DNA of 64,000 bases from an archaeon (GTDB lineage: Archaea; Aenigmatarchaeota; Aenigmatarchaeia; GW2011-AR5). Under the pieces are notes generated by a model. It searched no databases. It was not told where the DNA came from and saw nothing but the letters and a program-made list of their open reading frames with translations. Every line of letters begins with the position of its first letter. The first letter of the stretch is position 1. The stretch lies in NCBI GenBank assembly GCA_028279825.1, contig JANQNA010000008.1, positions 35,173 through 99,172 of the forward strand, written 5' to 3'. Position numbers and translations under genes: made by a program. This document shows, one piece after another, positions 4,028 to 47,976 of the stretch.

Positions 4028-5399
4028 TTATAAAGAGAAGTTTGGTTTTAACGTAAAGACAGATACTTTTCACGAGAAGAAAGGTTTATCGGAAAAAACA
4101 GTCAGGGAGATATCCGAGATAAAACAGGAACCTGAATGGATGACAAAGTACAGAACAGATGCGTTAAAGGTGTTTCTTAAGAAAAAAATGCCAAAGTGGG
4201 GAGCCAATCTTGAAAGCATTGATTTCGAGAAAATCATTTACTATCTAAGTGCTACAAAGAAGAAGGCAGCTACATGGGATGATGTACCTGCCGAAATCAA
4301 GAATACATTTGAGAAACTGGGAATACCGGAAGCCGAGAGAAAAATACTTGCCGGTGTCGAGGCTCAGTTTGATTCCGAGGTTGTTTACAGCAAGATACGG
4401 GAGGATTTAGAAAAACTGGGTGTTATATTCTGTTCCACCGATCAGGCACTGAAGGAACATCCCGAACTGTTCAAAAAATACTTTGGTACTGTTATACCGG
4501 CAGGGGACAACAAGTTTTCTGCACTCAACAGTGCTTTCTGGTCTGGCGGATCGTTTGTTTACGTGCCAAAAGGCGTTGAAGTTCCCATACCTCTGCAGGC
4601 TTACTTTAGAATAAATTCCAAAGATCTCGGCCAGTTTGAAAGAACACTTATCATAGCCGATGAAGGGAGTCGTGTACACTACATAGAGGGATGTACTGCG
4701 CCTATCTATTCATCGGACAGCCTTCATGCAGCTGTTGTTGAGGTGATTGCACTGCCTGGTGCACATGTTCGTTATACAACATTGCAGAACTGGTCAAATA
4801 ATGTTTACAATCTTGTCACGAAAAGGGCCCACGCACACAAAGATGCTATTGTTGAGTGGCTTGATGCAAACATTGGGAGTAAAATAACTATGAAATATCC
4901 AAGTGTTTATCTGCTTGGTGAGAATGCCAAAGCTGACATGATGTCTATAGCCTTTGCAGGTAAAGAGCAGTTACAGGACACAGGATCAAAGGCGGTACAC
5001 ATGGCAAAGAACACGAGCTCTTCCATAGTCAGCAAGTCCATCAGTAAAGACGGCGGCAGGACAATGTACAGAGGTCTTGTCAGAGTGAACAAGGGCTGCA
5101 AAGATTCAAAGTCAAACGTCCGGTGTGATGCTTTAATTCTGGATGAAAAATCCGCTTCCGATACCATTCCTTACATGGAGATAAACGAGAAGAAGGTTAA
5201 CATGGGGCATGAAGCAACCGTGGGCAAGATTGGCGAAGAGCAGCTCTTTTATCTACAGAGCCGTGGCCTAAGCGAGGCGGAAGCTGCTGCATTGATAGTG
5301 CGCGGTTTCTTTGACTGTTTCACAAAACAACTTCCACTGGAATATGCCGTAGAGTTTAATCGATTGATAGAAATGGAAATGGAAGGTAGTGTAGGATGA
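4011..5399 (+). CDS. sufB: Fe-S cluster assembly protein SufB
   Basis: 462 aa; conserved SufB blocks [34 protein letters not shown] and C-terminal beta-helix region; overlaps sufC end by 17 nt. Confidence 0.9.
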
Positions 5400-6436
5400 T
5401 GTTGCCGCTTCTAAGCAAGATAAGAGAGGAATCTATGAACAAATTTCTAGGTATGAATCTGCCGCAAGAAAGAGAAGAGGACTGGAGATATACGACAATA
5501 GACAACATTGAATTTACAGCAGGCGACAGCGAGATAATGATGAGTGATGCACCCGAAGGCGTGATATTTACGGATATTCTTACTGCAATGAAAGAACATT
5601 CGTCTATGATCGAAAAACATATGAAAGTAAAAATAATGGACAAATTTTCTGCGTTCCACTACGCAAACCTTGTGAACGGCATATTCATCCACATTCCTGA
5701 CGAAAAGAGTGCTGAACTTTCCTCTGTAATAAACGGTGCTTCACACACAGTCATTGTTCTGGGAAAGAACTCAAAATTAAAATACACGGAGGAATATTCC
5801 GGCACAGGATTAACTGACGGTGTTGAGATCTTTGCCGGAGAAGACAGCGAGGTCAACCTTACCTCTGTACATAATTCAAAGAAAACATTTTCATTCAAAC
5901 ATGCTGCGCTTGAACGCTCTGCCAAACTTGACTGGACTGTTGCATCTGTTGGTGAATTCCACAGAACAAGGATGGATATTGATCTCTGCGGTGAAGCCGC
6001 ATCTTCAGATATCAAGTGTGCATTCAAGGGTAGAAATGAACAGCATAAGGATTTTCTTGTAACAACAAATCATATCGGGCGTGATACTCAAAGCAACGTG
6101 CTTGGAAAAGGTATTCTTGATGACAGATCAACATCAGTTTTTCGTGGCATGATAAACATAGCAAAAACAGCACAGAGAACCGATGCGTACCTGTCTTCAA
6201 ATACTCTGCTATTAAGTGAGGAGGCAAGGGCAAACAGCGTTCCAAGTCTTGTTATTGATACTGATGATGTTAAAGCAAAACATGGTGCAACTACGGGGCA
6301 GATAGATGAAGAACAACTCTTTTATCTACAGAGCCGTGGCCTCAGCGAGGCACAGGCCGAGGAATTCATAGTCCAGGGATTCTTTGAACCGATTGTAAAC
6401 GACAAACTAAGGGGTGTATTGAATGGAAGTACGTGA
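5396..6436 (+). CDS. sufD: Fe-S cluster assembly protein SufD
   Basis: 346 aa SufB/D paralog with C-terminal ...[30 protein letters not shown] block shared with SufB; ATGA overlap with sufB. Confidence 0.8.
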
Positions 6437-7601
6437 TGATTTTCCCATTCTCAAGAGAAAGGTCAACGGTAAAACGCTTGTTTATCTGGACAATGCTGCT
6501 ACAACGCAAAAACCCAAACAGGTGATAGACAAAGTATCCGAGTACTACAAGGAGCACAATGCAAACATTCACAGAGGGATTCACAAGCTCAGTGAAGAGG
6601 CTACTAACGAGTTTGAAGAAACAAGAAAGAAAATAGCTAAGCTTATTGGCGCTAAAGAAGACGAGGTTGTGTTTACAAGAAGCACAACGGAGTCTCTGAA
6701 TACTTTAGCTTATTCATCGCTTCGTTCTCTTGGAGAGGGTGACGAGGTTGTACTTAGTGTTATGGAACACCACAGCAATATTGTTCCGTGGCAGATGCTG
6801 CAGGAAAAGGGTGTGAAGCTGAACTTCGTGGACATTAATCCTGACGGGACGCTAAAGATGGAACAGTTTGAAGAACTGATAAACAAGAATACAAAAATTG
6901 TTTCAATTGTTCATGCATCCAATGTACTTGGTACGATAAATCCTATTGCCGATATATCCAAAATTGCACATGATAATAATGCTATAATGATTGTAGACGG
7001 TGCACAAAGCGTGCCAAATATGAAAATAGACGTGAAGAAACTAGGCTGTGACTTTCTTGCATTTTCAGGGCATAAAATGCTTGGGCCAACGGGTGTGGGA
7101 ATACTCTACGGAAACAACTTTGACAACGTGGAACCGTTTCTGCGTGGCGGAGAAATGATCAGGGAAGTTTCGCTTCGCGAAGCTAAATGGAATGACATGC
7201 CCTGGAAGATGGAAGCGGGTACACCAAATATTGCAGGTGTTGCCGGGTTCGGTGAAGCTATTGCTTACCTGGAAAGAACTGGTTTATCAAAGATAAGGAA
7301 ACATGAAACAGAACTCGTAAAGTATGCAACGAAGAAGCTTGAGGATTTGGTTACAATATACGGCAATGCTGATAAAACAGGCGTGGTATCTTTTTCAATG
7401 AATGCCCATCCTCATGACGTTGCGTCACTGGTTGATTCAGAAGGTATAGCAATAAGATCGGGTCATATGTGCGCGCAGCCACTGATGGATCGACTGGAAG
7501 TCCCGGCTCTGTCCAGAGCCAGTTTCTATCTTTACAACACAAAAGAAGAGATAGACAAGCTTGTAACAGCTTTGGAAAAAGTCCAGAAGGTGTTTGAATG
7601 A
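6423..7601 (+). CDS. sufS: cysteine desulfurase SufS (class V aminotransferase)
   Basis: PLP-lysine motif FSGHKMLGPTGVGILYG, active-site Cys region RSGHMCAQP; 392 aa. Confidence 0.9.
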   Translation: MEVRDDFPILKRKVNGKTLVYLDNAATTQKPKQVIDKVSEYYKEHNANIHRGIHKLSEEATNEFEETRKKIAKLIGAKEDEVVFTRSTTESLNTLAYSSLRSLGEGDEVVLSVMEHHSNIVPWQMLQEKGVKLNFVDINPDGTLKMEQFEELINKNTKIVSIVHASNVLGTINPIADISKIAHDNNAIMIVDGAQSVPNMKIDVKKLGCDFLAFSGHKMLGPTGVGILYGNNFDNVEPFLRGGEMIREVSLREAKWNDMPWKMEAGTPNIAGVAGFGEAIAYLERTGLSKIRKHETELVKYATKKLEDLVTIYGNADKTGVVSFSMNAHPHDVASLVDSEGIAIRSGHMCAQPLMDRLEVPALSRASFYLYNTKEEIDKLVTALEKVQKVFE

Positions 7602-10061: not shown

Positions 10062-10726
10062 CATTTGTCTCTATACTCACAGTTCCTGCACATCCATATC
10101 TTGTCGTGTTTTGCCCTTGACTCAGGATCAGGCAATGCATCCATTTTCAGGAGCTTGTGCAGAGCTTTGAAACGGTTTATCACCATCTCTGCTTCTTCAG
10201 GATTGTAATCTACCTTGAATACCTTGCTCTTCAGGTTCTTCTTGTCTATGTATAACAGCACACCGTCGTGTATGTTCATGATATGCATATAGAGCTGCAA
10301 CTGCATTGCGTTGTAGTCGGCTGGTTTGTTAACGAAATCAACACTGCCAGTTGACTTAACCTCCATGAGAATGTTTTTTCCGCTTGCCTTCACGAGTATA
10401 ATATTATCTACCCTGCCAGATATGACAAAATCATCGACCTCTTTCTTGAATGGTGCTTCCGCCGATACCAACATGATTTCAGGATTCTTGTCGCTGGACA
10501 AGATCTTGACGACAAGGTCGTGCATTATGTTGCCAACTTCGAATATCTTCAGTAAATCAGGCCCGACAGAACTTGGAAATTTGTAGGAATACCATACCTT
10601 TCTCATGCATGTGCCTATTTCCGAAGGATAGTATTTGCCTATTGTTTTCGGATAAGATTCCCTGCGCAAATAATTGTCAACCATCTCGTTAAAATCAATC
10701 ATAACAAATCTATGACTATAATTCAT
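10025..10726 (-). CDS. Cas4-like PD-(D/E)xK nuclease with Fe-S cysteines (RecB-family exonuclease domain)
   Basis: N-terminal Cys (PSEIGTC), DxxISGRVD...ILMEVK core, QLQLY motif and C-terminal CRNCEYRDKC triad: the four-Cys + PD-(D/E)xK architecture of Cas4/DUF83. Confidence 0.65.
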   Translation of the reverse strand: MNYSHRFVMIDFNEMVDNYLRRESYPKTIGKYYPSEIGTCMRKVWYSYKFPSSVGPDLLKIFEVGNIMHDLVVKILSSDKNPEIMLVSAEAPFKKEVDDFVISGRVDNIILVKASGKNILMEVKSTGSVDFVNKPADYNAMQLQLYMHIMNIHDGVLLYIDKKNLKSKVFKVDYNPEEAEMVINRFKALHKLLKMDALPDPESRAKHDKIWMCRNCEYRDKCYEETPSSARWL

Positions 10727-10754
10727 TTAAATCTGAGACAACACAAGTAAAATT

Positions 10755-11462
10755 ATGAAAAAGCCCCAGACAGAGCACTGGCACAGGAATTCTGACACGG
10801 GACGTAATCTCCGCGAGGTTATCCTTGGTGGCCAGGATGGGCTCGTAAATGTGCTGGGTATTATACTTGCTGTAGCGACGGCTGCACAGGATGTTAAGAT
10901 CGTTATAATTGCCGGACTGGCTGCTACATTTGCTGAAAGCATCAGCATGGCAGCTGTTGCTTATACTTCTACAAAGGCTGAACGAGATTTCTATAAGTCA
11001 GAAGAAGCCAGGGAAAAGTGGGAGATGAAGCACTGGCCGGACAGAGAAAGAAAAGAGATATACGATATCTACAAGGCCAAGGGATTCAAGGGTAATATTC
11101 TAAATCAGATAGTCAATAAAATAACCTCCAACAAGAGACTGTGGCTAAAGGTAATGATGGAGGAGGAACTAAGGCTCTTTGAAGACGAATACAGGAATCC
11201 CGGCCGTTCAGCCGTAATAGTTGGTGTTGCTGCCATAATAGGATCATTAGTACCGCTTATACCGTTCCTGTTCTTTGGTATAGAAGGAGCGATTATCGGT
11301 TCTGTTGTGCTTTCGCTAATAGTTTTGTTTGTATCAGGCATGATTAAGGGACACCTGACAACAGGCAAGCTCCTGCGGAGCGCGACGGAAATGGCGTTAA
11401 TTGGTATGGGTGCTGCTCTAATAGGATACGGTATCGGAGCTGTGCTGGGTGTAGCTATATAG
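10755..11462 (+). CDS. VIT1/CCC1-family iron/manganese transporter
   Basis: ILGGQDGLVNVLGIILAV... matches the VIT family N-terminal signature; C-terminal TM helices. Confidence 0.7.
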   Translation: MKKPQTEHWHRNSDTGRNLREVILGGQDGLVNVLGIILAVATAAQDVKIVIIAGLAATFAESISMAAVAYTSTKAERDFYKSEEAREKWEMKHWPDRERKEIYDIYKAKGFKGNILNQIVNKITSNKRLWLKVMMEEELRLFEDEYRNPGRSAVIVGVAAIIGSLVPLIPFLFFGIEGAIIGSVVLSLIVLFVSGMIKGHLTTGKLLRSATEMALIGMGAALIGYGIGAVLGVAI

Positions 11463-11473
11463 GATATGATCAA

Positions 11474-11890
11474 ATGATAAGTTTTCAAGTATTGAATATG
11501 GAACAATTTGCTGATAATTGGCTGTATCAGAAATATCTTACCGTACTGAACAAGTTTCTGGAAGAGAATCTGCCTTCTATAGATCATACTCATGTATTCC
11601 TTACCGGATCGTTTCTTACAGGAAAACTGAAAGAAACTTCTGACCTTGACTTGGATATAATCAGCCCGAACACAACCAGACAGGAGGTTGTAAAGGTGAT
11701 GATTGACGGAGTTGAGGTTGAGTATGCTACGTTCTCCTTCAAGATGATTGAAAACTGGCTTGATGGGAACGAATATAAAGAGAAGAAACTTCTTGCAAAG
11801 GCTGTTTCTAACTGGAGAATGATCGTGGGAAGGGAGTTTCCTCAGGAACTCGTGGATAAGGCAAAGAAAATCGTAGCTGCTGATTCTTAG
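11474..11890 (+). CDS. minimal nucleotidyltransferase (Pol-beta superfamily)
   Basis: hVFLTGSFLTGKLKETSDLDLDI = GS-x9-DxD nucleotidyltransferase motif. Confidence 0.6.
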   Translation: MISFQVLNMEQFADNWLYQKYLTVLNKFLEENLPSIDHTHVFLTGSFLTGKLKETSDLDLDIISPNTTRQEVVKVMIDGVEVEYATFSFKMIENWLDGNEYKEKKLLAKAVSNWRMIVGREFPQELVDKAKKIVAADS

Positions 11891-11925
11891 TTGCTATTTA
11901 AAAAGATTGGTATCATGGTGATTGT

Positions 11926-12159
11926 ATGATATACCAAATGAGAGTTGACCCGCGGCACTCGGTCAGTCCAAAATTAGCACGTAAGGGCGTTCTAAGGGAA
12001 TTGAATTCTGCTGGAAATCAGTCAAGACCTCTTGCAGACCACGCTACGATATTTCCATATCCCTTGCTTGAGACAACGGAGCCTTTGACAGAAGAACAGA
12101 TACATGACCTGTTTAACAGACGTTATGTAATTCTAACTAAGCTTGATGAAGCTGCTTAA
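11926..12159 (+). CDS. hypothetical protein
   Basis: 77 aa ORF downstream of NTase; no motif. Confidence 0.3.
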   Translation: MIYQMRVDPRHSVSPKLARKGVLRELNSAGNQSRPLADHATIFPYPLLETTEPLTEEQIHDLFNRRYVILTKLDEAA

Positions 12160-12584
12160 ACGTCCAGAACTACATGGCATGTCCACTTGTTGCCCTTTTT
12201 GGCTACGTTAAACAGGTGCCACGTAACTGCTTTTACATCAACCAGCATTTCATGTATGTCTGTATTGATTGTTTCGCCTTCAAGCTGGGCAAACAGCCGA
12301 TAAGTAGGATCTTTTTCAATATCCACCTTTATTTTTGAGAACAGCATCAGATCACGGTCTTTTAGAAATACTATCTCATGAAGAAAATCATGAAGAAGTT
12401 TCTCAAGATTGTCATTTTCCAGCTTTATTGTCCTCTTTTCTTCTGTTTTAAGATCTGCTAATTCTTTAATCATGGTGTTTGTAACAGCCAAGCCAGCTGA
12501 CTCAAACAGTTCATTAAGCGAAGCACCCTCTGCTTCGAAAGCTACGTCCGCCACCGTTACGCCTTCAATATATCTGTAACTCAT
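12156..12584 (-). CDS. archease (RtcB activator)
   Basis: MSYRYIEGVTVADVAFEAEGASLNELFESAGLAV... matches archease N-terminal signature. ORF track gives 12156..12617; start moved to the conserved Met. Confidence 0.8.
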   Translation of the reverse strand: MSYRYIEGVTVADVAFEAEGASLNELFESAGLAVTNTMIKELADLKTEEKRTIKLENDNLEKLLHDFLHEIVFLKDRDLMLFSKIKVDIEKDPTYRLFAQLEGETINTDIHEMLVDVKAVTWHLFNVAKKGNKWTCHVVLDV

Positions 12585-12588
12585 GATA

Positions 12589-13317
12589 TCACTTGGCAGT
12601 AGCCTTTTTACATACAAAGTAAAGCACTTCTGACCTGTTTGTCGGGCGATCCCTGTCAGGGTCAGATATGGCTAAGACTTTGAAATGCTTTTTCAGCATC
12701 CTCAAAATTTTTTCCCTGGGAAAACTTACTTCAAGTATATTTTCTTCATGCAATCTGTACAAGTTGTCTCTTTTGTGCTCAAATATCCTCATTTTTGAGA
12801 GAACTTTGTTCTTTCCCAGTTTTTGCATCTCCTCGAATATGAAACTTTTTCCTATCTTCTTTGAGTGCTGTTCAGAAAGACTCCACGGTTTGAAGATGTT
12901 CTCCAGCACGTAAACATCGAAAATGAACAAACCGTTTTTGTTTAGATGTTCATCAGCTTTTTTAAAAACTTTTTTCCAATCACTTGCTTTGTGTAAATGG
13001 TTTATAGAATCAAATATGCAGAGAACGACATCGAATTTTTTATCCAGAGCGAAGCTCCTCATATCAGCCTGGAAAAAGTTTCCTTTCCTGACTTTCTTTT
13101 TTGCGATTTCAACCATTTCCTTTGACTGATCCAGTCCCCATACTTCATATTTTTTTGCCAGGGGTTTTACTATTTCACCTGTGCCACAGGCTAACTCCAG
13201 TATGGAATTTGCCTCTGGGTTATGTTTTCTGATCCATTTTCGTATATCAACAATCTTGTCTTTCGGATCATCCATCAGCTTATCGTAGTATTCAGCCATT
13301 TTGATATAGTTTTTCAC
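12589..13317 (-). CDS. class I SAM-dependent methyltransferase
   Basis: Motif I ILELACGTGEI, post-I D-loop and motif II/III spacing typical of Rossmann MTases. Confidence 0.8.
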   Translation of the reverse strand: MKNYIKMAEYYDKLMDDPKDKIVDIRKWIRKHNPEANSILELACGTGEIVKPLAKKYEVWGLDQSKEMVEIAKKKVRKGNFFQADMRSFALDKKFDVVLCIFDSINHLHKASDWKKVFKKADEHLNKNGLFIFDVYVLENIFKPWSLSEQHSKKIGKSFIFEEMQKLGKNKVLSKMRIFEHKRDNLYRLHEENILEVSFPREKILRMLKKHFKVLAISDPDRDRPTNRSEVLYFVCKKATAK

Positions 13318-13368
13318 AAATAAGATTTGTGCTCCATCCTTTTTAATTCTTCCTACTAAGTATTTTGG

Positions 13369-13980
13369 ATGATAACAACAATTATTTTTGATCTCGGTGA
13401 CGTGTACATAAAAGGAGCTTTTGGTGTTGAATACCGAATAGCGGAAATTACTGGTTTGAAACCGGATGCCATACTCAAATCATTGACTAGCACATTTTGG
13501 ACCCCCAATAACAAACAATTCTTGTATGGCAATATGAAAGAAGATGATTATTTGTCATGGCTGATTGAAGAGTTTGGGTGGAATATTAGCATTGAACAAT
13601 TGAAATCGGTCATACGTGAAAATTTTCAGGAAATTGAAGGAATGCGAGAAATAATAGAAAAGTTAAAGGAAAGGGGTTACAAACTAGGATTGTTGTCAGA
13701 TCATTCCAGGGAGTGGATAGACTACATCGAAGACAAATATAAGCATCACAAATTGTTTGATGTTATCCAGTATTCATTTGATGTAGGAACAGTAAAGGCT
13801 GAAAGGAAGATGTTTGAGTCGATACTTGAGAAATTGAAAGAAAGGCCGGAAAATTGCTTGTTTATTGATGACTTTGAAAAAAATACCGATGTTGCCAAGT
13901 CTCTTGGCTTAAGAACAATAGTTTTCAAGAACCCTGAACAACTTAGGGGAGAATTAAAGAACATGAAAATAGAAGTTTAG
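13369..13980 (+). CDS. HAD-superfamily hydrolase
   Basis: N-terminal IIFDLGDV (DxGxV nucleophile motif), motif II SD, motif IV FIDD. Confidence 0.75.
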   Translation: MITTIIFDLGDVYIKGAFGVEYRIAEITGLKPDAILKSLTSTFWTPNNKQFLYGNMKEDDYLSWLIEEFGWNISIEQLKSVIRENFQEIEGMREIIEKLKERGYKLGLLSDHSREWIDYIEDKYKHHKLFDVIQYSFDVGTVKAERKMFESILEKLKERPENCLFIDDFEKNTDVAKSLGLRTIVFKNPEQLRGELKNMKIEV

Positions 13981-14026
13981 ATCTTTATCTGTTATTTGGT
14001 TTTTTATACTTTTTTCTTATATTGAG

Positions 14027-14404
14027 ATGATGCATTATAGGGGTGAAGTTCTTGCCAGGGCCCTGATGAAGAGAGGGATAGACGAGGCTCCTGCAAGAAA
14101 AGCTGGAAGAGTACTGGCATACTATGAGACATCTCACGGAGATGAGAGATTTCCTTTGACCCAAAGGATAAGCTATATTTGGAGGGGCATGATAGCGTAT
14201 GGGGTAGAGCCCTATTTGGACGAATTAGAATGTTCGACACCAGTATTTGAGGATCCCAAAATGACCGACATATATCGTGCTTTGGATAGTATTGAAATTG
14301 GTGTTGCGGTAGGTGTTGAGATGGGGTTGCTAAATGTTTGTGAACATACCAAGTACGCTCTTTCCGCTAAAGGGACAGAGTTTTTTTCTTCTCTTTCAGT
14401 ATGA
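14027..14404 (+). CDS. hypothetical protein
   Basis: 125 aa ORF; no motif recognised. Confidence 0.35.
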   Translation: MMHYRGEVLARALMKRGIDEAPARKAGRVLAYYETSHGDERFPLTQRISYIWRGMIAYGVEPYLDELECSTPVFEDPKMTDIYRALDSIEIGVAVGVEMGLLNVCEHTKYALSAKGTEFFSSLSV

Positions 14405-17639: not shown

Positions 17640-18152
17640 TTAAGCTTTTCCAAGTGTTTTTTCGCCTGGTTTCCAGTTAATCGGACAGAGTTCACCGGAC
17701 TGCAATGCTTTCAAAGTTCGCAGGGTCTCTTCAACATTGCGCCCTACGGACAAATCAGACATTACGATATATCTTACAACACCTTCCGGGTCTATAATGA
17801 AGGTACCCCTGTAAGCTATGCCCTGGTCTTCTTTTAGAACATTGAACATTCTGCTTATATTGTGTGTTGTATCTGCAATCACAGGAAACTTAACTTCCGG
17901 AAGATCTCTTTCGAACCATGCCTTGTGGCTAAAAGCACTATCGGTACTTGCACCAATGACAACAGCATTGCTCTTTTTGAATTCTTCTTCGTGTTTTGCG
18001 AAATCTCTTATTTCTGTAGGACACACAAACGTGAAATCCAACGGATAGAAGAACAAGACAGTCCATTTACCTCGCGGCAGGCTTATCTTCTTCATTTCAC
18101 CGTTCACATATGCTTCCTCCGTAAAATCAGGTACTTTTTCACCTATTTTCAT
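17640..18152 (-). CDS. peroxiredoxin (AhpC/TSA family)
   Basis: Peroxidatic Cys motif FTFVCPTEI and resolving Cys near C-terminus (GELCPINW). Confidence 0.9.
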   Translation of the reverse strand: MKIGEKVPDFTEEAYVNGEMKKISLPRGKWTVLFFYPLDFTFVCPTEIRDFAKHEEEFKKSNAVVIGASTDSAFSHKAWFERDLPEVKFPVIADTTHNISRMFNVLKEDQGIAYRGTFIIDPEGVVRYIVMSDLSVGRNVEETLRTLKALQSGELCPINWKPGEKTLGKA

Positions 18153-18249
18153 GTTATCAACTCCCTAATAGATGTTCATACTATGATCTTTATTTTCTTA
18201 AGTCTTATTTTAACAGTTAAAATTTTGATTTAACTGCTTTGATGTAATT

Positions 18250-19110
18250 GTGAATTTTATCAATCAAGTTCTTAAATTTGAGAAACAATATATTAATAGA
18301 GTTATGTTGTTTGATAAACCACAGGATATAGAAGCCTATAAGATTTGGCTACAAAAATACCACGGGGAAGATGTAGAAAAAATAAGAAAATGGTTTGAGT
18401 TGGTTTCGAAAGATATTAAAGACAAATTTGAAAATTCTAGTTTTTGGACAGAATTGTTGGAAAAAAATCGCACATATTCTTATGATTATAAGAAAGATAC
18501 AGGTTGTGATCTTTTGATTTCAAGTTCAAATCCCACTGTATCAACAAAAGATTTTGACTCCTTACTTGATAAGAGTTTGAGACTTAATATTTTAAATAAT
18601 AAAAATTGGCCTGAGCCGCCCGACGATGGCTGGTTTCTCCCCAATAACTGGTTTTCAAGAATTGGAGACATTATTAGAACTAGAATCATTGTTAAATATT
18701 TAGATGGTGTTGAGTTTCTTATACCCAGAATAGAAACCCTTGCAAGAGAAAACAAGATTGTCTTTGAAAATCCAATTTTTAAATCAGACGAAGCAGGCTA
18801 CTATGCTGTGCACTTATATGTATGTGACACCTTTGAGGTTTATGGAATAGATTTTGATACTGAAAAAATGAAAATTAAGATAGAAATTCAATTGACAACA
18901 CAGCTGCAGGAAATTATATTAAAATTATTGCATAAGTATTATGAAGCTAGAAGAAAAAAAACTAAGAATAATGAGGAAATTCCATGGCAATGGAATTATA
19001 AAAATAACGAGTTCGCTACGAACTATCTTGGTCATATACTTCATTATATTGAGGGTATGATTGTTGATATTAGGCAGAAACAGGAGAGTGATTCAAATGG
19101 AGCAATTTGA
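18250..19110 (+). CDS. RelA/SpoT-like nucleotidyltransferase domain protein (candidate alarmone synthetase/toxSAS-like)
   Basis: C-terminal half carries the RSH synthetase hallmark blocks: SRIGDIIRTRIIVKYLDGV (cf. DIxGIRIIv), DEAGYYAVHLYV (cf. GYrSlHvvv), IKIEIQLTTQLQE (cf. vEIQIRTxxqhxWAE). Gene lies in a ~28% GC island. Confidence 0.55.
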   Translation: MNFINQVLKFEKQYINRVMLFDKPQDIEAYKIWLQKYHGEDVEKIRKWFELVSKDIKDKFENSSFWTELLEKNRTYSYDYKKDTGCDLLISSSNPTVSTKDFDSLLDKSLRLNILNNKNWPEPPDDGWFLPNNWFSRIGDIIRTRIIVKYLDGVEFLIPRIETLARENKIVFENPIFKSDEAGYYAVHLYVCDTFEVYGIDFDTEKMKIKIEIQLTTQLQEIILKLLHKYYEARRKKTKNNEEIPWQWNYKNNEFATNYLGHILHYIEGMIVDIRQKQESDSNGAI

Positions 19111-19531
19111 AAGATATTTCAACGTCTTAGGTATTGATGCAACAAAAAGAATGCGGATACGTGTGATATTTGATTTTTATAAGAGTATCTCCGAGGATGA
19201 GATTATTGATATTTTTATCAATACTAGGATCAACAAAGATTCTGAAACGGTATTTGATAGTTTGTTCTTTTTTACGGAAAAATCTGTTATGGAGGCAAAA
19301 TCCTTTTTGACAAAAGACCAATTTGATTTGGATTTTTTAAAAGAGCGTGTTGCCTATTGGGAAATAACAAAGGAAAATTATGACTTTGAAAATGCAACAG
19401 CAGACTCTCGCTTGAGTATCTTTGCCAAATTGAAAAGGCCTTCTGTTTTGAATTTAACGGCAGAAGGAAACAACTGTGATGAATTAAGAAGGATATTCAA
19501 GAAGTTCATTGTCGCTAATCAAAATATTTAA
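19097..19531 (+). CDS. hypothetical protein, overlapping partner of RelA/SpoT-like gene (candidate antitoxin/immunity)
   Basis: Start MEQFERYF preceded by GGAGAGTGA SD and overlapping upstream gene end by 14 nt; same AT-rich composition. Confidence 0.4.
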   Translation: MEQFERYFNVLGIDATKRMRIRVIFDFYKSISEDEIIDIFINTRINKDSETVFDSLFFFTEKSVMEAKSFLTKDQFDLDFLKERVAYWEITKENYDFENATADSRLSIFAKLKRPSVLNLTAEGNNCDELRRIFKKFIVANQNI

Positions 19532-19596
19532 TTTATAAATATGTTTGAAATATGGTTTAAATCCTGCTAATAAAGATTGATGTTCAATAATGATAT

Positions 19597-19944
19597 ATGG
19601 GCGATGATAAGATCAGGGAATTTGCTGAAAAGAAGTTTGGCAAGATAAATGTTATTGTTTCCCTTTATTCTCTGCAGATAGTCTGGGCTGACAGGAAATT
19701 CGCTGACATGGTTGATTTCAAGGAAGAAGAGCTACCCGGGAAGAACATCAGGGATATTATTGTTATAGATTATCATGTCTTTTTGCGGACACTCGGAAAA
19801 TTTCTTGGAAAAACAGCAGATGACACAAAGATTCTCAAGAGAAAGGACGGAAAAAAGATAAAAGCTTCCGGTACGGTTCATCATTTCTCCTTTGAAAAGG
19901 AAGAGTATATCTGCGTAAGGCTGAAAAAAGCAGAACATGTATAA
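19597..19944 (+). CDS. hypothetical protein (possible PAS-like fold)
   Basis: 115 aa; pattern of sensor-domain-like beta strands; weak. Confidence 0.3.
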   Translation: MGDDKIREFAEKKFGKINVIVSLYSLQIVWADRKFADMVDFKEEELPGKNIRDIIVIDYHVFLRTLGKFLGKTADDTKILKRKDGKKIKASGTVHHFSFEKEEYICVRLKKAEHV

Positions 19945-19968
19945 GAAGTTTTTGTTCTTTGTACTACT

Positions 19969-20280
19969 ATGATAGAGGGATATACCGTTCCGAAAGTGCA
20001 GGATATAGTCAGGATAGACGGGCGTTGGGCTCAAGTTGTGTCACAGGGACTGGTGTTATACCTGGATGATAAGTCACATGCGTATATTGACTGGCATGAT
20101 TATATGATGCACAAAAATCACAGACGCCGAAGTGTAGGACTTGTTAGAGCATTAGAGCCAAATTGTCTTTCTGCCGTTGAAATAGACAATATTTATTATG
20201 CTTTGGGCAGGAAAAAACCGGAAACAAAACTGAGTGTTTCTGTTTTCGGAGAGTTCAAGAAAGACTTAAGCAGAAATTGA
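19969..20280 (+). CDS. hypothetical protein
   Basis: 103 aa ORF 24 nt downstream of previous gene. Confidence 0.35.
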   Translation: MIEGYTVPKVQDIVRIDGRWAQVVSQGLVLYLDDKSHAYIDWHDYMMHKNHRRRSVGLVRALEPNCLSAVEIDNIYYALGRKKPETKLSVSVFGEFKKDLSRN

Positions 20281-20481
20281 ATAAATGAACATGATTATGG
20301 CAATAACTAAAAAGCATGCACCAAATTTTCTGTAGGGCACGTCTTTTATTGTGCCGCTCCATTTTATGTGAAGTCCTTTGAGCGCCCAGCATTGGAAACG
20401 GTAAACTTGTTTTGGAAATATCAACACAATTAATGCTGCCACAAGAAATATAATTCCCCTTATTGCGAATACATAGTCCAT
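20266..20481 (-). CDS. small membrane protein
   Basis: 71 aa, two predicted TM helices. Confidence 0.3.
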   Translation of the reverse strand: MDYVFAIRGIIFLVAALIVLIFPKQVYRFQCWALKGLHIKWSGTIKDVPYRKFGACFLVIAIIMFIYSISA

Positions 20482-20531
20482 AAATATACTGCTTTCATAA
20501 GGCTTAAGAGTGTATCTGAGACTGGCTTAGC

Positions 20532-20810
20532 ATGAGAACAGCTAGAGGATTCGAGTTAATGGCTATCAATATAGAAGAACATGTAGGAAACTATATGCCT
20601 GGACACTGGCGTGAGACAATTCGTACGGTTACTTCGGTTCCTTTGATTACTGAAGATAAGGCAAGGAGACTAGTTGAGGCGTATCAAAATGGAACTCTTC
20701 CTGTAGAGGTAAAAACATTAACGGATAATCCCAATGTGGCTGCTGGATTTTATGATTTCTTTTGGAAAACTAAACTTGAACCATATTTAGCAGAAGTCAA
20801 ATTACCTTAA
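20532..20810 (+). CDS. hypothetical protein
   Basis: 92 aa ORF. Confidence 0.3.
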   Translation: MRTARGFELMAINIEEHVGNYMPGHWRETIRTVTSVPLITEDKARRLVEAYQNGTLPVEVKTLTDNPNVAAGFYDFFWKTKLEPYLAEVKLP

Positions 20811-20815
20811 TGTAT

Positions 20816-21205
20816 CTATTCCTTCTTCAGATCCGCAAAGATCTCGTGTATGTTTCCATCAGGATCTGCGAAGAATGCTGTTCTCTGACCCCACGGCATA
20901 TCTTCTGGTTCCTTTATTGGTGTTGCACCTTTTGACGTAATTTCTTCATATACCTTGTTCATATCTTCAAGAGGTACAGAAAAAGCCAGTTCGAATGACT
21001 GTCCTTTCTTATCTTCTAGGAAGCTTTCGTGATTTGTTGCCTCGTTCAAGACTTTATGTGTAGACATTTCAAAGCGCACGCCATTGTTTTCAAATTCCAC
21101 GAAGTTCTCTAGCTGCATCTTTATCTTGAAACCCATGACATCTCTATAGAACTGTAGCATTTCATCAAATCTTGATGTTATGATGCTGATAACACTAATG
21201 TTCAT
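20816..21205 (-). CDS. VOC/glyoxalase-bleomycin resistance family protein
   Basis: 129 aa; paired beta-alpha-beta-beta-beta modules, C-terminal ADPDGNIHEIF typical of glyoxalase I fold. Confidence 0.75.
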   Translation of the reverse strand: MNISVISIITSRFDEMLQFYRDVMGFKIKMQLENFVEFENNGVRFEMSTHKVLNEATNHESFLEDKKGQSFELAFSVPLEDMNKVYEEITSKGATPIKEPEDMPWGQRTAFFADPDGNIHEIFADLKKE

Positions 21206-44875: not shown

Positions 44876-46318
44876 TTACTTCTTTGATATGCGCATTCTG
44901 TTCTTGGATAAGACACCCATTATTGTTTTTGCCGTATCTCTCGGATGTGTTATTGCCGTCTTTGTTGTGCCAGTAAAGTCGCTCCGTATGTTTTGTTTTA
45001 TGTATTTGATTCTGAAAAAGTTTAGCTCCTCACGGGCCTCCAGAAATACATTCTTGAATTCCTCCCTGCTGATAGATTCATCCAAAAGCAGCGGATTATC
45101 CATGTTCTGATGTGTTAAAATGTCCCAGTTCATACCTTCGTCCGACACCTTTCCCCTTTGCTTTGCAACTTCCCACATGTCCGTACCAGGGAACGGCGTC
45201 ATTACAAAACACCAGATACCGTCTGCGCCGTTTTCTTTGGCGAATTTTATGAAGTCTATTGTTTCCCTCATTTCCGCTATAGTTTCCGTGGGAGTACCAA
45301 ATATAAGACTTCCGTAAACAGCAAACCCGTATTTTTTACAGGTTACAATAGCCTGTCTGTTTTTCTCAACGGTTGTCGTATTCTTTTTCAGATAGGCCAG
45401 AACTCTTTCACTTCCGCTTTCAAAGCCAAAACCAATTGTTTTTGTGTTCAGTGATTTTAATGTCTGGCAAACGTCATCATTTATGGAATCACTCCTGGCC
45501 TGACATGCTATTGTCATATCGTCCAGCACGCCCCTTTCCTTCAAGATATCGCGAATATCCTTCAGCCTTTTTACGTTAGCAGGGAACAGATCATCCCAGA
45601 CACTGTAGTGTTTTACCTTATATTTCTCCCTAAGAAGCATGATTTCTTCTACCACTCTTTCAGGACTATGGAATCTCACAGTCTTCCAGAAATGAGCCGT
45701 TGAACAGAATATACACTTGAAAGGACAACCACGGCTTGTGAGTATTGTTCCTTCTCTTGTGTGCTTTCCTGCACCGGAAACCATTTTCTTCTTGAAATAT
45801 CCCTTGTGCATGTAATCTCTGTCAGGAACAGGAATATCATCAATAGGATCTATCTGAGGTCGCAATTCTGTCTGTACTAATTTGTCATCCTTCCAGAAAA
45901 CCAAGCCCTTGATATCTTTCAGTTTTTCCTTGTCAAATTTGCCTTCCCTGCGGAAAGACTCCATTAGTTCGAGAAACGTCTGCTCACCTTCACCGGAAAC
46001 AGCTACGTCAAAACATTTTGGCATAGAGACTGGACAGGTGGAAATATGCACACCGCCCAGAATAACCGGTATGTTTAGCTCCTCCTTTATTCTCTGTGCC
46101 ATATTTGAGACATCGCCGATAAAAATAGTCATGGCTGAAAGACCAACAACATCAGGCTTGTATCTTTTCAGCTCGGTCATCGGATCTTCAAAATTAGCAT
46201 CAATTATTTTTACGTCGTTGAAGCCACCCTTTTCACGGATATATGTAGCCAGATAAGCTAAAGTAATCGGAGAAACAAGATCCCTATCCTTAACAATAGT
46301 CACTAATGCTATCTTCAT
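44876..46318 (-). CDS. B12-binding domain radical SAM protein
   Basis: N-terminal cobalamin-binding Rossmann-like domain, then radical SAM CPFKCIFCS (CxxxCxxC) motif. Confidence 0.85.
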   Translation of the reverse strand: MKIALVTIVKDRDLVSPITLAYLATYIREKGGFNDVKIIDANFEDPMTELKRYKPDVVGLSAMTIFIGDVSNMAQRIKEELNIPVILGGVHISTCPVSMPKCFDVAVSGEGEQTFLELMESFRREGKFDKEKLKDIKGLVFWKDDKLVQTELRPQIDPIDDIPVPDRDYMHKGYFKKKMVSGAGKHTREGTILTSRGCPFKCIFCSTAHFWKTVRFHSPERVVEEIMLLREKYKVKHYSVWDDLFPANVKRLKDIRDILKERGVLDDMTIACQARSDSINDDVCQTLKSLNTKTIGFGFESGSERVLAYLKKNTTTVEKNRQAIVTCKKYGFAVYGSLIFGTPTETIAEMRETIDFIKFAKENGADGIWCFVMTPFPGTDMWEVAKQRGKVSDEGMNWDILTHQNMDNPLLLDESISREEFKNVFLEAREELNFFRIKYIKQNIRSDFTGTTKTAITHPRDTAKTIMGVLSKNRMRISKK

Positions 46319-46440
46319 TAAACCGCTCCCCTAAGATTGTTTAGAATTAGCATATTTATAGTTATAATACGATTTTTTGGCCACTTTGTTTGCATTCGAA
46401 CCCCAACATGTATTAATATTTTCTTAGACAAGACAACAGT

Positions 46441-47088
46441 ATGAATTTTAATATTAAGGATTTTATGACTACTGACTTCTCATATTGGATAGGGCTTGTT
46501 CAAAGTGATGGTGGATTGTGTAGATGGGAAAAAGATAAGAAAATTCGCTATAGATTAGACTTCAATAACACAAGTTTGTTGTTAGCAAAAAAATTTCAGC
46601 TAGGTACAAGATACTTCAATGCAAATGTCAAGATATATAAGTTCAGATCAAAGAGAAATCAATATAGTTGTCAGTTTGTTGTTAACTCTGTTATTGATAT
46701 CTTGAAAACAATGAATATTGTCTACAAAAGGAAGGATTTTATACCACCATATTGGATAATAGAAAATCCTAAGTTTTTTGGATCTTACTTGGCTGGTTTG
46801 ATAGATGGTGATGGTACTGTTAGCATAAAACGAAAAAAATACCCACAATGTAGAATTAGGATATTGTCTCCTGTTAGACAAAATAAATTATCAAATCTTA
46901 TTGGTAATTTCATGAAATGTAGTGCTTTTGTTTATGAGCATAATGCGGGCCATACAACTTGCCCCTGCTTAGAATTCTATGTGACACCTAAGAATTCTGC
47001 ATTTATTAAGACTTTTGTTTTACCATATTTGAATTTAAACTACAAAAAAACAATGATTAAGAGGTATATGAAAACAAGGGGACTATAG
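46441..47088 (+). CDS. LAGLIDADG homing endonuclease (double-motif)
   Basis: Second motif SYLAGLIDGDGTVSI is canonical; first motif degenerate (YWIGLVQSDGGL); last 10 nt incl. stop overlap the 5' end of tRNA-Trp. Confidence 0.65.
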   Translation: MNFNIKDFMTTDFSYWIGLVQSDGGLCRWEKDKKIRYRLDFNNTSLLLAKKFQLGTRYFNANVKIYKFRSKRNQYSCQFVVNSVIDILKTMNIVYKRKDFIPPYWIIENPKFFGSYLAGLIDGDGTVSIKRKKYPQCRIRILSPVRQNKLSNLIGNFMKCSAFVYEHNAGHTTCPCLEFYVTPKNSAFIKTFVLPYLNLNYKKTMIKRYMKTRGL

Positions 47089-47243
47089 TCTAACCAGGCA
47101 TGACGTCGCGCTCCAGCAAGGCTTTTCTTTCAAAAAGAAAATCCTTGAGGCAAAAGAAACTATTACAGTTGGAGCCTTGAGACGAGCGAAGCTCGTCTGT
47201 GAGAAGAAACGCGATGGTGGGGGTTCGAATCCCTCTGGTCCCA
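47079..47243 (+). tRNA. tRNA-Trp(CCA) with 92-nt intron at canonical 37/38 position (intron 47117..47208)
   Basis: Acceptor GGGACTA/TGGTCCC + A73; anticodon stem TCGCG/CGCGA; loop CU-CCA-G|intron|A; T-arm GGGGG-TTCGAAT-CCCTC. Folded by eye; D-arm is non-canonical (3 bp). Confidence 0.7.
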
Positions 47244-47244
47244 T

Positions 47245-47976
47245 TTATTTCCATATACCTTCAAAGAACTCTTTGTAATACTCATAATTCATTTTCGACT
47301 TTATCATGAATACAGTTGGTTTATCTTTCCAAATAACTGTCATGACGTGGTCTTTGAAAATGAATGTACCAATTGGTAGTTTTTGATCAGTAAATTTAAC
47401 TTTCATGTCCTTGTATATATGATTTTTCTTGACTATACTCTTCAATGATATGTGTGACAGTAACCTAACTTTGATCCCCTTTTCTAGCCTCTTTTTATGA
47501 TAATTCTTGAAAAAATTGATGACTCTCTTTTCTCCCAGCATTCCACCAAGCATGAATCCTTGATATTCCTCGCCTCTTTTCAGCGTACCTAGAATCAGAT
47601 TGAATGCTGATTTTACACCATCGTATGATTCATATACAGTTGCTTCTTGCTGTTCTCTAGTTAGCTTTCTTCGCTGTTCTATCTGTGGAATTAACTTCTC
47701 TTTTAGCTCTTTTTTCTGACTAATTATCTCTTTTTCTTTTTCATTTAGAATATCAACCAAGTTACTTGGATGTGAAGCACGGAAATGTTTTACGTTGTTC
47801 TTTACAACAAAACTGACGAGTCCCTTTTCTACTAGTTTGTCCAGGATTGAATATATCTTTGAATCTGTAATCCTCGCTCTTTCTATGATAGGCCCTACTG
47901 TACTACTCTCCAGTTCGAGTAGCGCAAAGTATACCTTTATCTCCGACTTATTCAGTATCTGTTCCAGTACGTCCAT
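47245..47976 (-). CDS. TrmB-family transcriptional regulator
   Basis: N-terminal TrmB wHTH (KVYFALLELESSTVGPIIERARITDSKIYSILDKLVEKGLVS) and C-terminal effector domain; 243 aa. Confidence 0.7.
   Translation of the reverse strand: MDVLEQILNKSEIKVYFALLELESSTVGPIIERARITDSKIYSILDKLVEKGLVSFVVKNNVKHFRASHPSNLVDILNEKEKEIISQKKELKEKLIPQIEQRRKLTREQQEATVYESYDGVKSAFNLILGTLKRGEEYQGFMLGGMLGEKRVINFFKNYHKKRLEKGIKVRLLSHISLKSIVKKNHIYKDMKVKFTDQKLPIGTFIFKDHVMTVIWKDKPTVFMIKSKMNYEYYKEFFEGIWK

Follow-up and report, generated by a model that had tools for sequence, protein, structure and literature searches.

A conserved gene pair of archaea and bacteria encoding a predicted RelA/SpoT-fold protein and a predicted PH-like partner

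The locus and its two genes

The window analyzed here is a 64,000-nt stretch of DNA from an archaeon of the Aenigmatarchaeota, and all coordinates refer to it. An AT-rich island had been proposed between a peroxiredoxin gene (17640-18152, minus strand) and a VOC/glyoxalase-like gene (20816-21205, minus strand), and both flanks and island were confirmed. Region 18160-19559 has a GC content of 30.3% compared with 41.2% for the whole window, the second lowest among 1253 sliding 1400-nt windows (z = -4.3); the minimum lies in the window starting at 18151, and 400-nt windows across the island range from 27 to 32.5%. The coding cassette itself has 31.6% GC. Because the GC3 of its two genes (0.28 and 0.34) is only moderately lower than that of the neighbors (~0.36-0.45), amino-acid composition explains part of this AT-richness. 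Three more small ORFs between the cassette and the VOC gene (19597-20810) have normal GC. A 25-nt, 76% inverted repeat bracketing the cassette (18206-18230 and 19517-19541) was considered as transposon-like ends and rejected, since 8 of 200 shuffles reach it and it is not conserved in three related loci (L001, L003, and L007).

The island contains two ORFs on the plus strand, 18250..19110 and 19061/19097..19531. The first gene, G1 (18304..19110, plus strand), encodes a divergent small-alarmone-synthetase-like (RSH SYNTH-fold) protein with predicted nucleotide pyrophosphokinase activity. Its length was originally given as 286 aa, and the mechanical ORF call took a GTG at 18250 as the start; the true start is almost certainly the ATG at 18304, which gives 268 aa, since this is where both the family consensus (MxxxKPxxIxEYKxWL) and a database copy (P0001) start. 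The GTG thus falls in the AT-rich upstream intergenic region (18160..18303, plus strand), the presumed promoter and 5' leader. The second gene, G2 (19097..19531, plus strand), encodes a 144-aa protein with a predicted PH-like beta-sandwich. As first described, G2 overlaps the end of G1 by 14 nt (G2 ATG at 19097, G1 TGA at 19108-19110) and is preceded by a Shine-Dalgarno-like element, GGAGAG (19083..19088, plus strand), which lies within the G1 coding sequence 8 nt upstream of the G2 ATG.

Predicted folds and conserved residues of G1 and G2

The predicted structure of G1 has the three-dimensional fold of a SAS catalytic domain, with 194 residues aligning structurally to the 202-residue RelP chain. 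The N-terminal 130 aa, which the original prediction left unrecognized, are accounted for in this model as the N-terminal helices of the SAS fold. The proposed identity as a RelA/SpoT nucleotidyltransferase holds for the fold and the catalytic motifs but not for Pfam RelA_SpoT (PF04607), against which G1 of the window scores 24.5-25.1 bits with a curated gathering cutoff of 27; only 10 of 52 G1 relatives touch this family at E <= 1, and their best score is also below the cutoff. The G1 family profile found no RSH match among PDB sequences, only a spurious integrase fragment (E = 0.057). The sole PDB sequence match of a single G1 sequence is CapRel (E = 0.013), and matching to PDB sequences places G1 in none of the named toxSAS subfamilies (FaRel, FaRel2, PhRel, PhRel2, CapRel, and GRel). 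Weak partial matches link the catalytic core of G1 to PADLOC PDC-S33 (E = 3.7e-4) and PHROG 4773 (E = 3.2e-4), presumably other RelA/SpoT-like proteins; only ~82 of ~350 profile positions match, and G1 is a member of neither. A second family member (P0056) had no match in PHROGs, and a literature search found no mention of PDC-S33. Structurally, G1 is nearer to RelP and RelQ (PDB 6ewz, 5dec, and 6fgk) than to CapRel, with a sequence identity to the former of only 14-17%. Unlike G1, RelP and RelQ have no operon-coupled dedicated partner, are inherited vertically in Firmicutes, and lack the C-terminal WQWNY...NYLGHILHY segment. Judged by its modeled structure, G1 belongs to the RelA/SpoT synthetase fold as a deeply diverged member.

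The three sequence blocks originally quoted as hallmarks (IIRTRIIV, GYYAVHLYV, and IEIQLTTQLQE) are present in the G1 translation. The conserved RSH catalytic motifs (K-x3-S-x3-K, Asp, G-loop Tyr, Glu-x-Gln, and distal His/Tyr) can be located, with K82, S86, K90, D122, Y166, H170, E194, Q196, H210, and Y213 invariant or nearly so; K82, K90, D122, R125, G165, H170, E194, Q196, and H210 are invariant among 52 G1 sequences, the set used for all G1 residues below. The K-x3-S-x3-K block (K82-N95, KDFDSLLDKSLRLN; 18547..18588, plus strand), in which S86, T91, R93, and N95 are nearly invariant, we take to be the equivalent of the ATP-phosphate-binding Syn1 motif of RSH synthetases (RxKxxxSxxxK). The following three blocks, also on the plus strand, were assigned by conservation and alignment. 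In the putative catalytic Mg-binding Asp block (D122-T126, DIIRT; 18667..18681), D122 aligns with CapRel D111 in a phmmer alignment. The putative acceptor-stacking Tyr loop (G165-H170, GYYAVH; 18796..18813) also contains an invariant A168 and a nearly invariant Y166, which aligns with CapRel Y155, described as the catalytic tyrosine (bioRxiv 10.64898/2026.04.06.716658). The putative catalytic Glu-x-Gln block (E194-E203, EIQLTTQLQE; 18883..18912), with T198, T199, Q200, Q202, and E203 nearly invariant, aligns to CapRel IEVQLRTELQH. The family has Thr in place of the canonical RSH Arg of EIQIRT, and DxxRT in place of DxxGxR; without this Arg and Gly-x-Arg, the chemistry of G1 could differ. Downstream lies a family-specific, near-invariant C-terminal segment (W228-M252, WQWNY..EF..NYLGHILHYIEGM; 18985..19059, plus strand), in which W228, W230, Y232, F237, Y241-G243, L246, H247, and E250 are invariant. 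Confidence of the monomer prediction is low here (pLDDT 51-75 over residues 211-268), and the segment is a candidate docking site for G2.

The partner protein was originally said to match nothing recognizable, which is correct for Pfam, where G2 finds no family at E <= 1, curated bacterial PH (bPH) included, but not for its fold. In the predicted structure, two N-terminal helices precede seven strands and a C-terminal helix, an arrangement that corresponds to the PH-like superfold, in which a C-terminal helix closes off a beta-sandwich of seven strands. PH-domain proteins of bacteria (e.g., PDB 3b77, Exig_2160) have no sequence or Pfam relationship to G2, which differs from them by an N-terminal helical hairpin, by invariant motifs of its own (YDF, AT..SR, and NCD), and by being soluble and strictly coupled to G1. 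Invariant polar residues are E66, D77, D96, S104, N126, C127, and N141. Neither a transmembrane segment nor a domain of recognizable toxic or enzymatic character is present in G2. The protein is unlike any toxSAS antitoxin of solved structure and shows no kinship to the known antitoxin classes (SAH hydrolase, Panacea/DUF4065, ATfaRel2, and others). A BFVD search with its structure returned one marginal match. G2 appeared to be an orphan in a word-indexed single-sequence search, which gave only itself and one relative; context look-ups and a profile search overturned this. No meaningful fusion of G2 to G1 or to other domains was found, the one candidate (L068) being a frameshifted pseudogene.

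Pairing, distribution, and genomic context

The cassette is an obligate, coupled pair under purifying selection, distributed patchily across both domains. A pattern-limited scan of 185,579 species representatives gave 65 with the locus, and G2 lies directly downstream of G1 on the same strand in 63 of these 65, so that the pair does recur elsewhere, as the original prediction required; further metagenome contexts agree. The two exceptions are a contig end (L018) and a partner swap (L056), in which a pentapeptide-repeat protein, a DNA-mimic fold, fills the partner slot. A 4-nt overlap (ATGA) joins the genes in 31 of 60 loci. Beyond close relatives there is no conserved third gene, and the position of the cassette in the genome varies. 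G1 and G2 co-evolve (Mantel r = 0.76; none of 2000 permutations attained this value), with G2 changing faster than G1 (mean identity 33% vs 48%), and dN/dS values of 0.06-0.57 indicate purifying selection on both.

Copies of the cassette occur in ~20 archaeal and bacterial lineages and at least 60 species. About two in three of the genome loci come from bacteria; the module is not specifically archaeal. Sequences do not separate by domain (mean identity 0.55 among archaea, 0.47 among bacteria, and 0.50 between them), and copies in a Heimdallarchaeota MAG and a Neomarinimicrobiota MAG reach up to 81% identity. In 58 of 58 loci, the cassette has a higher AT content than its flanks. Archaeal carriers include ANME, Methanoperedens, Bathyarchaeia, Thaumarchaeota, and Heimdallarchaeota; cultured bacterial carriers are Chryseobacterium sp. 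Leaf404, Flavobacterium amnicola, Paenibacillus planticolens, Kribbella, Microbispora, and Herbiconiux. The families comprise at least 959 G1 clusters at 90% identity and at least 1129 G2 clusters at 50% identity.

Most neighborhoods consist of housekeeping genes (MutS, ribosomal proteins, CCA-adding enzyme, and Mbh hydrogenase), and roughly 10 annotated neighborhoods showed no defense-island enrichment. One locus (L072) adjoins a PemK/RHH toxin-antitoxin pair and an MmeI-type restriction-modification gene. Searches with tblastn against 72,556 plasmids and 50,697 phages gave no match to the cassette, and viral contigs of IMG/VR gave no confirmed match. A rare fusion protein (P0083) joins G1 to DUF4062, with the partner gene still downstream; its N-terminus matches PADLOC PDC-S60 (E = 3.5e-30), and DUF4062 has been characterized as a TIR-like antiphage NADase in two 2026 preprints. 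Decayed copies are found for both genes. G1 is interrupted by a stop codon inside EIQITTQ in L010, has lost profile positions 143-196 through an in-frame deletion in L053, and is broken in L060, L061, and L062 too, each time with G2 kept. Conversely, L065 and L066 have a frameshifted G2 beside an apparently intact, only partly visible G1. The bias in these counts (~5-6 for G1 vs 2 for G2) is within the expectation from gene length. As a sign that active G1 is toxic, the survival of G2 beside an inactivated G1 is thus indirect and statistically not decisive.

Possible functions of the cassette

The explanation that fits best, and to which we give an even chance, is that the locus is a self-contained, horizontally spreading cassette of toxSAS type, in which G1 is a toxic pyrophosphokinase and G2 its controller. 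In its favor we count the conserved active-site positions, the fixed pairing and co-evolution of the genes, the accessory and mobile character seen in their spread over both domains and their AT-rich composition, the copies with decayed G1 that keep G2, and the links to conflict systems given by the DUF4062 fusion and L072. G1 would most likely use ATP as donor and pyrophosphorylate the 3'-OH of an acceptor. A purine nucleotide is mildly favored as acceptor, which would yield a (p)ppGpp- or (p)ppApp-like alarmone and drain NTP pools; the alternative is the tRNA CCA end, and either activity would lead to growth arrest. The nucleotide is preferred because G1 is net acidic (median pI 6.1) and nearer in structure to RelP and RelQ than to CapRel, and because tRNA-targeting FaRel2 needs a basic patch at its N-terminus, which is absent from housekeeping SAS. 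Translational coupling with G1 would fix the G1:G2 ratio. G2 is most likely a PH-fold protein-binding module that would control G1 by direct contact, as a type II antitoxin, probably by gripping the conserved, poorly ordered C-terminal segment of G1. The enzymatic activity and its acceptor, toxicity, G1-G2 binding, the direction of control, and any anti-virus role of the cassette are what we infer here, and an activator or sensor role for G2 would be as compatible with the data as a toxin-antitoxin or defense role.

The likeness to toxSAS (FaRel, FaRel2, PhRel, PhRel2, and CapRel; Jimmy et al., bioRxiv 10.1101/575399; Kurata et al., bioRxiv 10.1101/2021.04.30.441581) lies in a single-domain enzyme of RSH-synthetase fold with conserved catalytic Asp and Tyr, whose gene forms with that of a small unrelated partner a conserved bicistronic operon, often with an overlap, that has spread patchily by horizontal transfer. 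The validated toxSAS systems were recognized by their conserved, overlapping bicistronic SAS operons (bioRxiv 10.1101/575399), and the G1-G2 pair has this architecture across disparate lineages. In contrast to toxSAS, G1 falls outside the Pfam RelA_SpoT thresholds and, by sequence, outside all named subfamilies; it has DxxRT and EIQxTT rather than DxxGxR and EIQxRT, and carries the extra C-terminal segment. A PH-like fold has been reported for no toxSAS antitoxin, and the G1-G2 pair is found in many archaea. Several observations count against a toxSAS-type cassette: the housekeeping neighborhoods, the absence from plasmids, phages, and IMG/VR, the frameshifted G2 copies beside apparently intact G1, the constant length and unusually high conservation of both proteins for a toxin-antitoxin pair, the missing Arg and Gly-x-Arg of G1, the dissimilarity of G2 to solved toxSAS antitoxins, and the failure of the family profile and of Pfam to place G1 within RSH at curated thresholds.

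In a rival reading, G2 activates rather than restrains G1. The cassette would then be an immune module in which G1 by itself does nothing, being auto-inhibited or oligomeric, until the PH-like G2 senses an infection cue and licenses it; neither gene would be toxic alone, both would be required for defense, and a broken G2 beside an intact-looking G1 would be tolerated. PANGU type I, in which a NAP sensor (Pag1A) acts on a GRel toxSAS (Pag1B), shows that a toxSAS partner can activate and that operons of this kind do not count as classical toxin-antitoxin systems (bioRxiv 10.64898/2026.04.06.716658). It shares with G1-G2 a bicistronic, co-evolving pair of toxSAS-fold effector and non-enzymatic partner. 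PH-like folds serve as general-purpose modules for recognizing ligands and peptides, and the many invariant polar residues of G2 suggest a specific ligand or interface; the DUF4062 NADase fusion puts G1 in an immune protein architecture, and the pentapeptide-repeat partner in L056 recalls the DNA-mimicking interface of PANGU. However, PANGU uses as partner a nucleoid-associated protein of ~37 kDa (at least 300 aa), which G2, with 144 aa and a PH-like fold, is not; G2 has nothing in common with Pag1A. The PANGU effector has a DNA-mimic C-terminal domain, and G1 has no such extra acidic domain. The lack of defense-island enrichment in the roughly 10 annotated neighborhoods and of anything related on phage or viral contigs also speaks against the activation model, which we consider rather unlikely.

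A role outside conflict, with G1 as a regulated synthetase of an alarmone or related nucleotide for stress physiology and G2 as its regulatory or receptor subunit, would suit the structural proximity to the housekeeping SAS RelP and RelQ, the high conservation and constant length of both proteins, the housekeeping flanks, and the absence from plasmids and phages; classical RSH are rare in archaea, and a divergent substitute is conceivable (PMC3153485). We consider it unlikely. The pair is present in only 65 of the 185,579 species representatives (pattern-limited scan), patchily across both domains with close cross-domain copies (up to 81% identity), and it is always compositionally deviant, without fixed position, and repeatedly pseudogenized, traits of accessory selfish or defense cassettes rather than of physiology genes; the fusion of G1 to an immune NADase domain also speaks against it. 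Very improbable is a type VII-like or product-receptor logic, in which G1 covalently modifies G2, or G2 binds the nucleotide product of G1, and G2 is the effector or neutralized toxin. Modifying antitoxins of nucleotidyltransferase fold exist in HEPN/MNT systems (PMC7641770), and the invariant Ser, Cys, Asp, and Asn of G2 could be modification or ligand sites. Yet G2 lacks a toxic or enzymatic domain and a transmembrane segment, the nearest relatives of G1 are pyrophosphokinases acting on nucleotides or tRNA and not on proteins, and decay strikes G1 at least as often as G2. It is a tentative possibility that G1 and G2 form a hitherto unrecognized cross-domain immune or signaling system, in which a non-canonical RSH enzyme, governed by a sensor or receptor of PH fold, makes a nucleotide product or modification other than (p)ppGpp, (p)ppApp, or tRNA-CCA pyrophosphate.

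RSH enzymes underlie stringent control in bacteria and, as toxSAS, several toxin-antitoxin and antiphage systems. In Archaea, they are regarded as rare and sporadic (PMC3153485). A literature search found no publication on the G1-G2 pairing and none joining RelA-SpoT or toxSAS with PH or pleckstrin. The cassette defines two large unannotated protein families and one fixed module common to many archaeal and bacterial phyla, and the predictions made here are directly testable because the family has cultured bacterial carriers. If G1 is active, alarmone-type or tRNA-pyrophosphorylation chemistry would enter uncultured archaea of biogeochemical importance, and a PH-fold protein would be a new class of toxSAS controller. 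Should the pair prove to be a cross-domain immune or signaling system, it would be the first alarmone-type conflict system native to Archaea.

Genes and composition of the cassette

The first gene of the cassette, G1 (18250..19110, + strand), encodes a divergent protein of the RelA/SpoT (RSH) synthetase fold, and the second, G2 (19061/19097..19531, + strand), encodes a 144-aa PH-like beta-sandwich partner. The length of 286 aa originally given for G1 needs correction: the start is most likely ATG 18304, giving 268 aa, because this is where the database copy begins, as does the consensus of the family, MxxxKPxxIxEYKxWL. The three peptide blocks quoted for it are all found in the translation. 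The reported 14-nt overlap is confirmed, as the G2 start ATG (19097) precedes the end of the G1 stop codon TGA (19108–19110), and the strong Shine–Dalgarno sequence is GGAGAG, 8 nt 5' of ATG 19097. The abrupt drop in base composition is also borne out: 18160–19559 has 30.3% GC versus a window average of 41.2%, the second lowest of 1253 sliding windows of 1400 nt (z = −4.3; minimum at 18151).

The cassette is flanked by a peroxiredoxin gene (17640–18152, − strand) and, beyond three small + strand ORFs (19597–20810), by a VOC/glyoxalase-like gene (20816–21205, − strand). One of the small ORFs encodes a 115-aa protein with PAS matches below threshold (E about 5e-4), the other two (103 and 92 aa) are without family, and none of the three is kept beside the cassette in other loci. 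A 25-nt, 76% inverted repeat (18206–18230 and 19517–19541) brackets the cassette exactly; as cassette ends it is probably due to chance, because 8 of 200 shuffles reach it and relatives do not conserve it. At another locus, L002, a 19-nt, 95% inverted repeat flanks the cassette (5789–5807 and 7377–7395). The gene content marks the window as archaeal: it includes an archaetidylinositol-phosphate-synthase-like gene and RtcB, and TFIIB lies on the same contig as the cassette's nearest relative. Rfam calls a tRNA at 47079–47243 (165 nt, 45.4 bits; not reported by ARAGORN), whose span implies a long intron. It borders the window's second-lowest GC region (about 46100–47850, roughly 33.5% GC).

The G1 and G2 families

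The RSH relationship of G1 is barely visible to sequence methods. The Pfam RelA_SpoT match proposed as a check scores 24.5–25.1 bits, below the cutoff of 27, and 10 of 52 G1 relatives match at E <= 1. The family profile found no RSH protein among PDB sequences, and the sole match of the single sequence was CapRel (7ztb/9erv; E = 0.013). Residues K82, K90, D122, R125, G165, H170, E194, Q196, and H210 are invariant across the family, with K82/K90 in K-x3-S-x3-K, G165/H170 in GYYAxH, and E194/Q196 in EIQxTT; this invariance marks what is probably a live active site. In the alignment to CapRel, D122 pairs with D111 and Y166 with Y155, which is described as the catalytic tyrosine (bioRxiv 10.64898/2026.04.06.716658). 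G1 differs from canonical RSH proteins in having DxxRT instead of DxxGxR, in replacing the Arg of EIQxRT with Thr (EIQxTT), and in carrying an extra near-invariant, family-specific C-terminal segment, WQWNY..EF..NYLGHILHYxEGM, which has low confidence in the monomer model.

G2 looked like an orphan in a first word-indexed search, a view overturned by context look-ups, each of which placed a gene of 144–147 aa (35–63% identity) directly 3' of a G1 homolog. The pair does co-occur elsewhere: a same-strand G2 follows G1 in 63 of 65 species-representative genomes, the exceptions being a contig edge (L018) and a locus (L056) where a pentapeptide-repeat protein of 541 aa takes the partner's place. 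Most often the two genes overlap by 4 nt (ATGA; 31/60 loci), which indicates translational coupling; comparison of the neighbourhoods found no further conserved gene. Distances of G1 and G2 correlate (Mantel r = 0.76, matched by 0 of 2000 permutations), G2 diverges faster (mean identity 33% versus 48% for G1), and dN/dS of 0.06–0.57 points to purifying selection on both. In an exhaustive profile search, G2 matches 1129 clusters (50% identity), of which 907 score E <= 1e-10; nearly all are stand-alone proteins of about 145 aa. G2 is soluble and mildly acidic, with invariant positions that include Y95-D96-F97, S104, and N126-C127. The only viral predicted structure resembling it is BFVD Q0H267, an uncharacterised 213-aa protein of Geobacillus phage GBSV1 (Foldseek E = 2.1e-4; TM 0.59 over 147 columns).

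Distribution, decay, and variants

Carriers of the cassette include archaea (Methanoperedens, ANME-1/Methanophagales, Methanosarcinales, Methanobacterium, Bathyarchaeia, Thaumarchaeota/Nitrosotalea, and Heimdallarchaeota) and bacteria (Chloroflexi/Dehalococcoidia, Acidobacteria, Planctomycetes, Latescibacteria, Nitrospirae, Marinimicrobia, Bacteroidetes, Actinobacteria, and Paenibacillus). Copies from the two domains are mingled, with mean identities of 0.55 (archaeal), 0.47 (bacterial), and 0.50 (between domains). G1 of a Neomarinimicrobiota MAG (L006) and of a Heimdallarchaeota MAG (L020) are 81% identical (dS about 0.23–0.31), reflecting either very recent inter-domain transfer or binning error/MAG contamination. 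In all 58 loci compared, the cassette is lower in GC than its flanks, by 11.5 points on average (p = 3.5e-11), and its GC follows that of the host (r = 0.87); thus, the "island" signature is a family trait, reflecting foreign origin or relaxed amelioration plus a composition rich in Lys, Asn, Ile, Tyr, and Phe. GC3 of the cassette genes in the window is only moderately low. The cassette was absent from the sequenced plasmids, phages, and IMG/VR contigs searched. Its flanks are mostly housekeeping genes; the only clearly defence-rich surroundings among annotated loci are in Marinimicrobia (L072), between a PemK/RHH toxin–antitoxin pair (5077–5618) and an MmeI-type type IIG restriction-modification gene (10669–14172).

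G1 is broken beside an intact G2 at several loci: by a TAA in place of Gln in EIQITTQ (L010), an in-frame deletion of profile positions 143–196 (L053), a missing N-terminus (L060), and frameshifts (L061 and L062). Conversely, L065 and L066 carry a frameshift in G2, with G1 partly visible at the contig edge. Keeping the partner once G1 is lost is what a toxin would predict, yet the bias is not significant when the lengths of the genes and the chance of MAG errors are considered. In a Microbacter sp. MAG, the pentapeptide-repeat protein that overlaps the G1 end (L056:5776–7401; Pfam Pentapeptide E = 1.5e-50) may be a partner swap, as proteins of this kind can mimic DNA. A rare 458-aa fusion, P0083 (L070:2703–4079 and L071:107–1483), joins an N-terminal DUF4062, matching PADLOC PDC-S60 (E = 3.5e-30), to G1. 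A partner of 147 aa still comes next, overlapping by 4 nt, and the surroundings are archaeal (Fae/Hps, RTC). DUF4062 is reported to be a TIR-like NADase that carries out antiphage defence (two 2026 preprints), and the fusion ties the G1 family to immune architectures.

Proposed mechanism and alternatives

The pair resembles modules of toxin-type small alarmone synthetases (toxSAS). Most likely, G1 would be a growth-arresting pyrophosphokinase, and G2, made by coupling in fixed stoichiometry with G1, would bind and control it. This reading is preferred because the validated toxSAS systems were themselves identified by a conserved bicistronic gene order (bioRxiv 10.1101/575399). The main rival follows the logic of PANGU, a defence operon with a NAP partner and a GRel toxSAS effector (bioRxiv 10.64898/2026.04.06.716658), in which the partner would activate instead of inhibiting. 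A non-conflict regulatory role, or modification or receptor logic between the two proteins, is less likely given the patchy cross-domain spread, deviant composition, lack of a fixed position, and repeated decay.

For a growth-arresting G1, a nucleotide acceptor (alarmone synthesis and NTP depletion) is mildly favoured over tRNA, because G1 is acidic (median pI 6.1) and closest to the housekeeping enzymes RelP/RelQ, whereas tRNA-targeting FaRel2 depends on an N-terminal basic patch that housekeeping enzymes are without. The invariant C-terminal segment of G1 is a candidate docking site for G2, since PH-like folds often clamp peptides or helices and the segment is poorly ordered alone. Some toxSAS enzymes act on the tRNA CCA end. 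A CCA-adding enzyme gene lies directly 5' of G1 in a bacterial context (L003:4472–5845 and L004:3275–4714), likely by coincidence, as it is seen solely there.

By sequence, G1 belongs to no named toxSAS subfamily, nor to Pfam RelA_SpoT at cutoff, and G2 belongs to no known antitoxin class. None of the literature searched connects RelA-SpoT or toxSAS with partners of the PH or pleckstrin type, and PDC-S33 is not mentioned in it. Source annotations read "hypothetical protein" except for one evidently mistaken LutC label (P0095). The pair is best regarded as a deeply diverged branch of RSH whose partner has a new fold; it is widespread in archaea and bacteria, and its function is putative.
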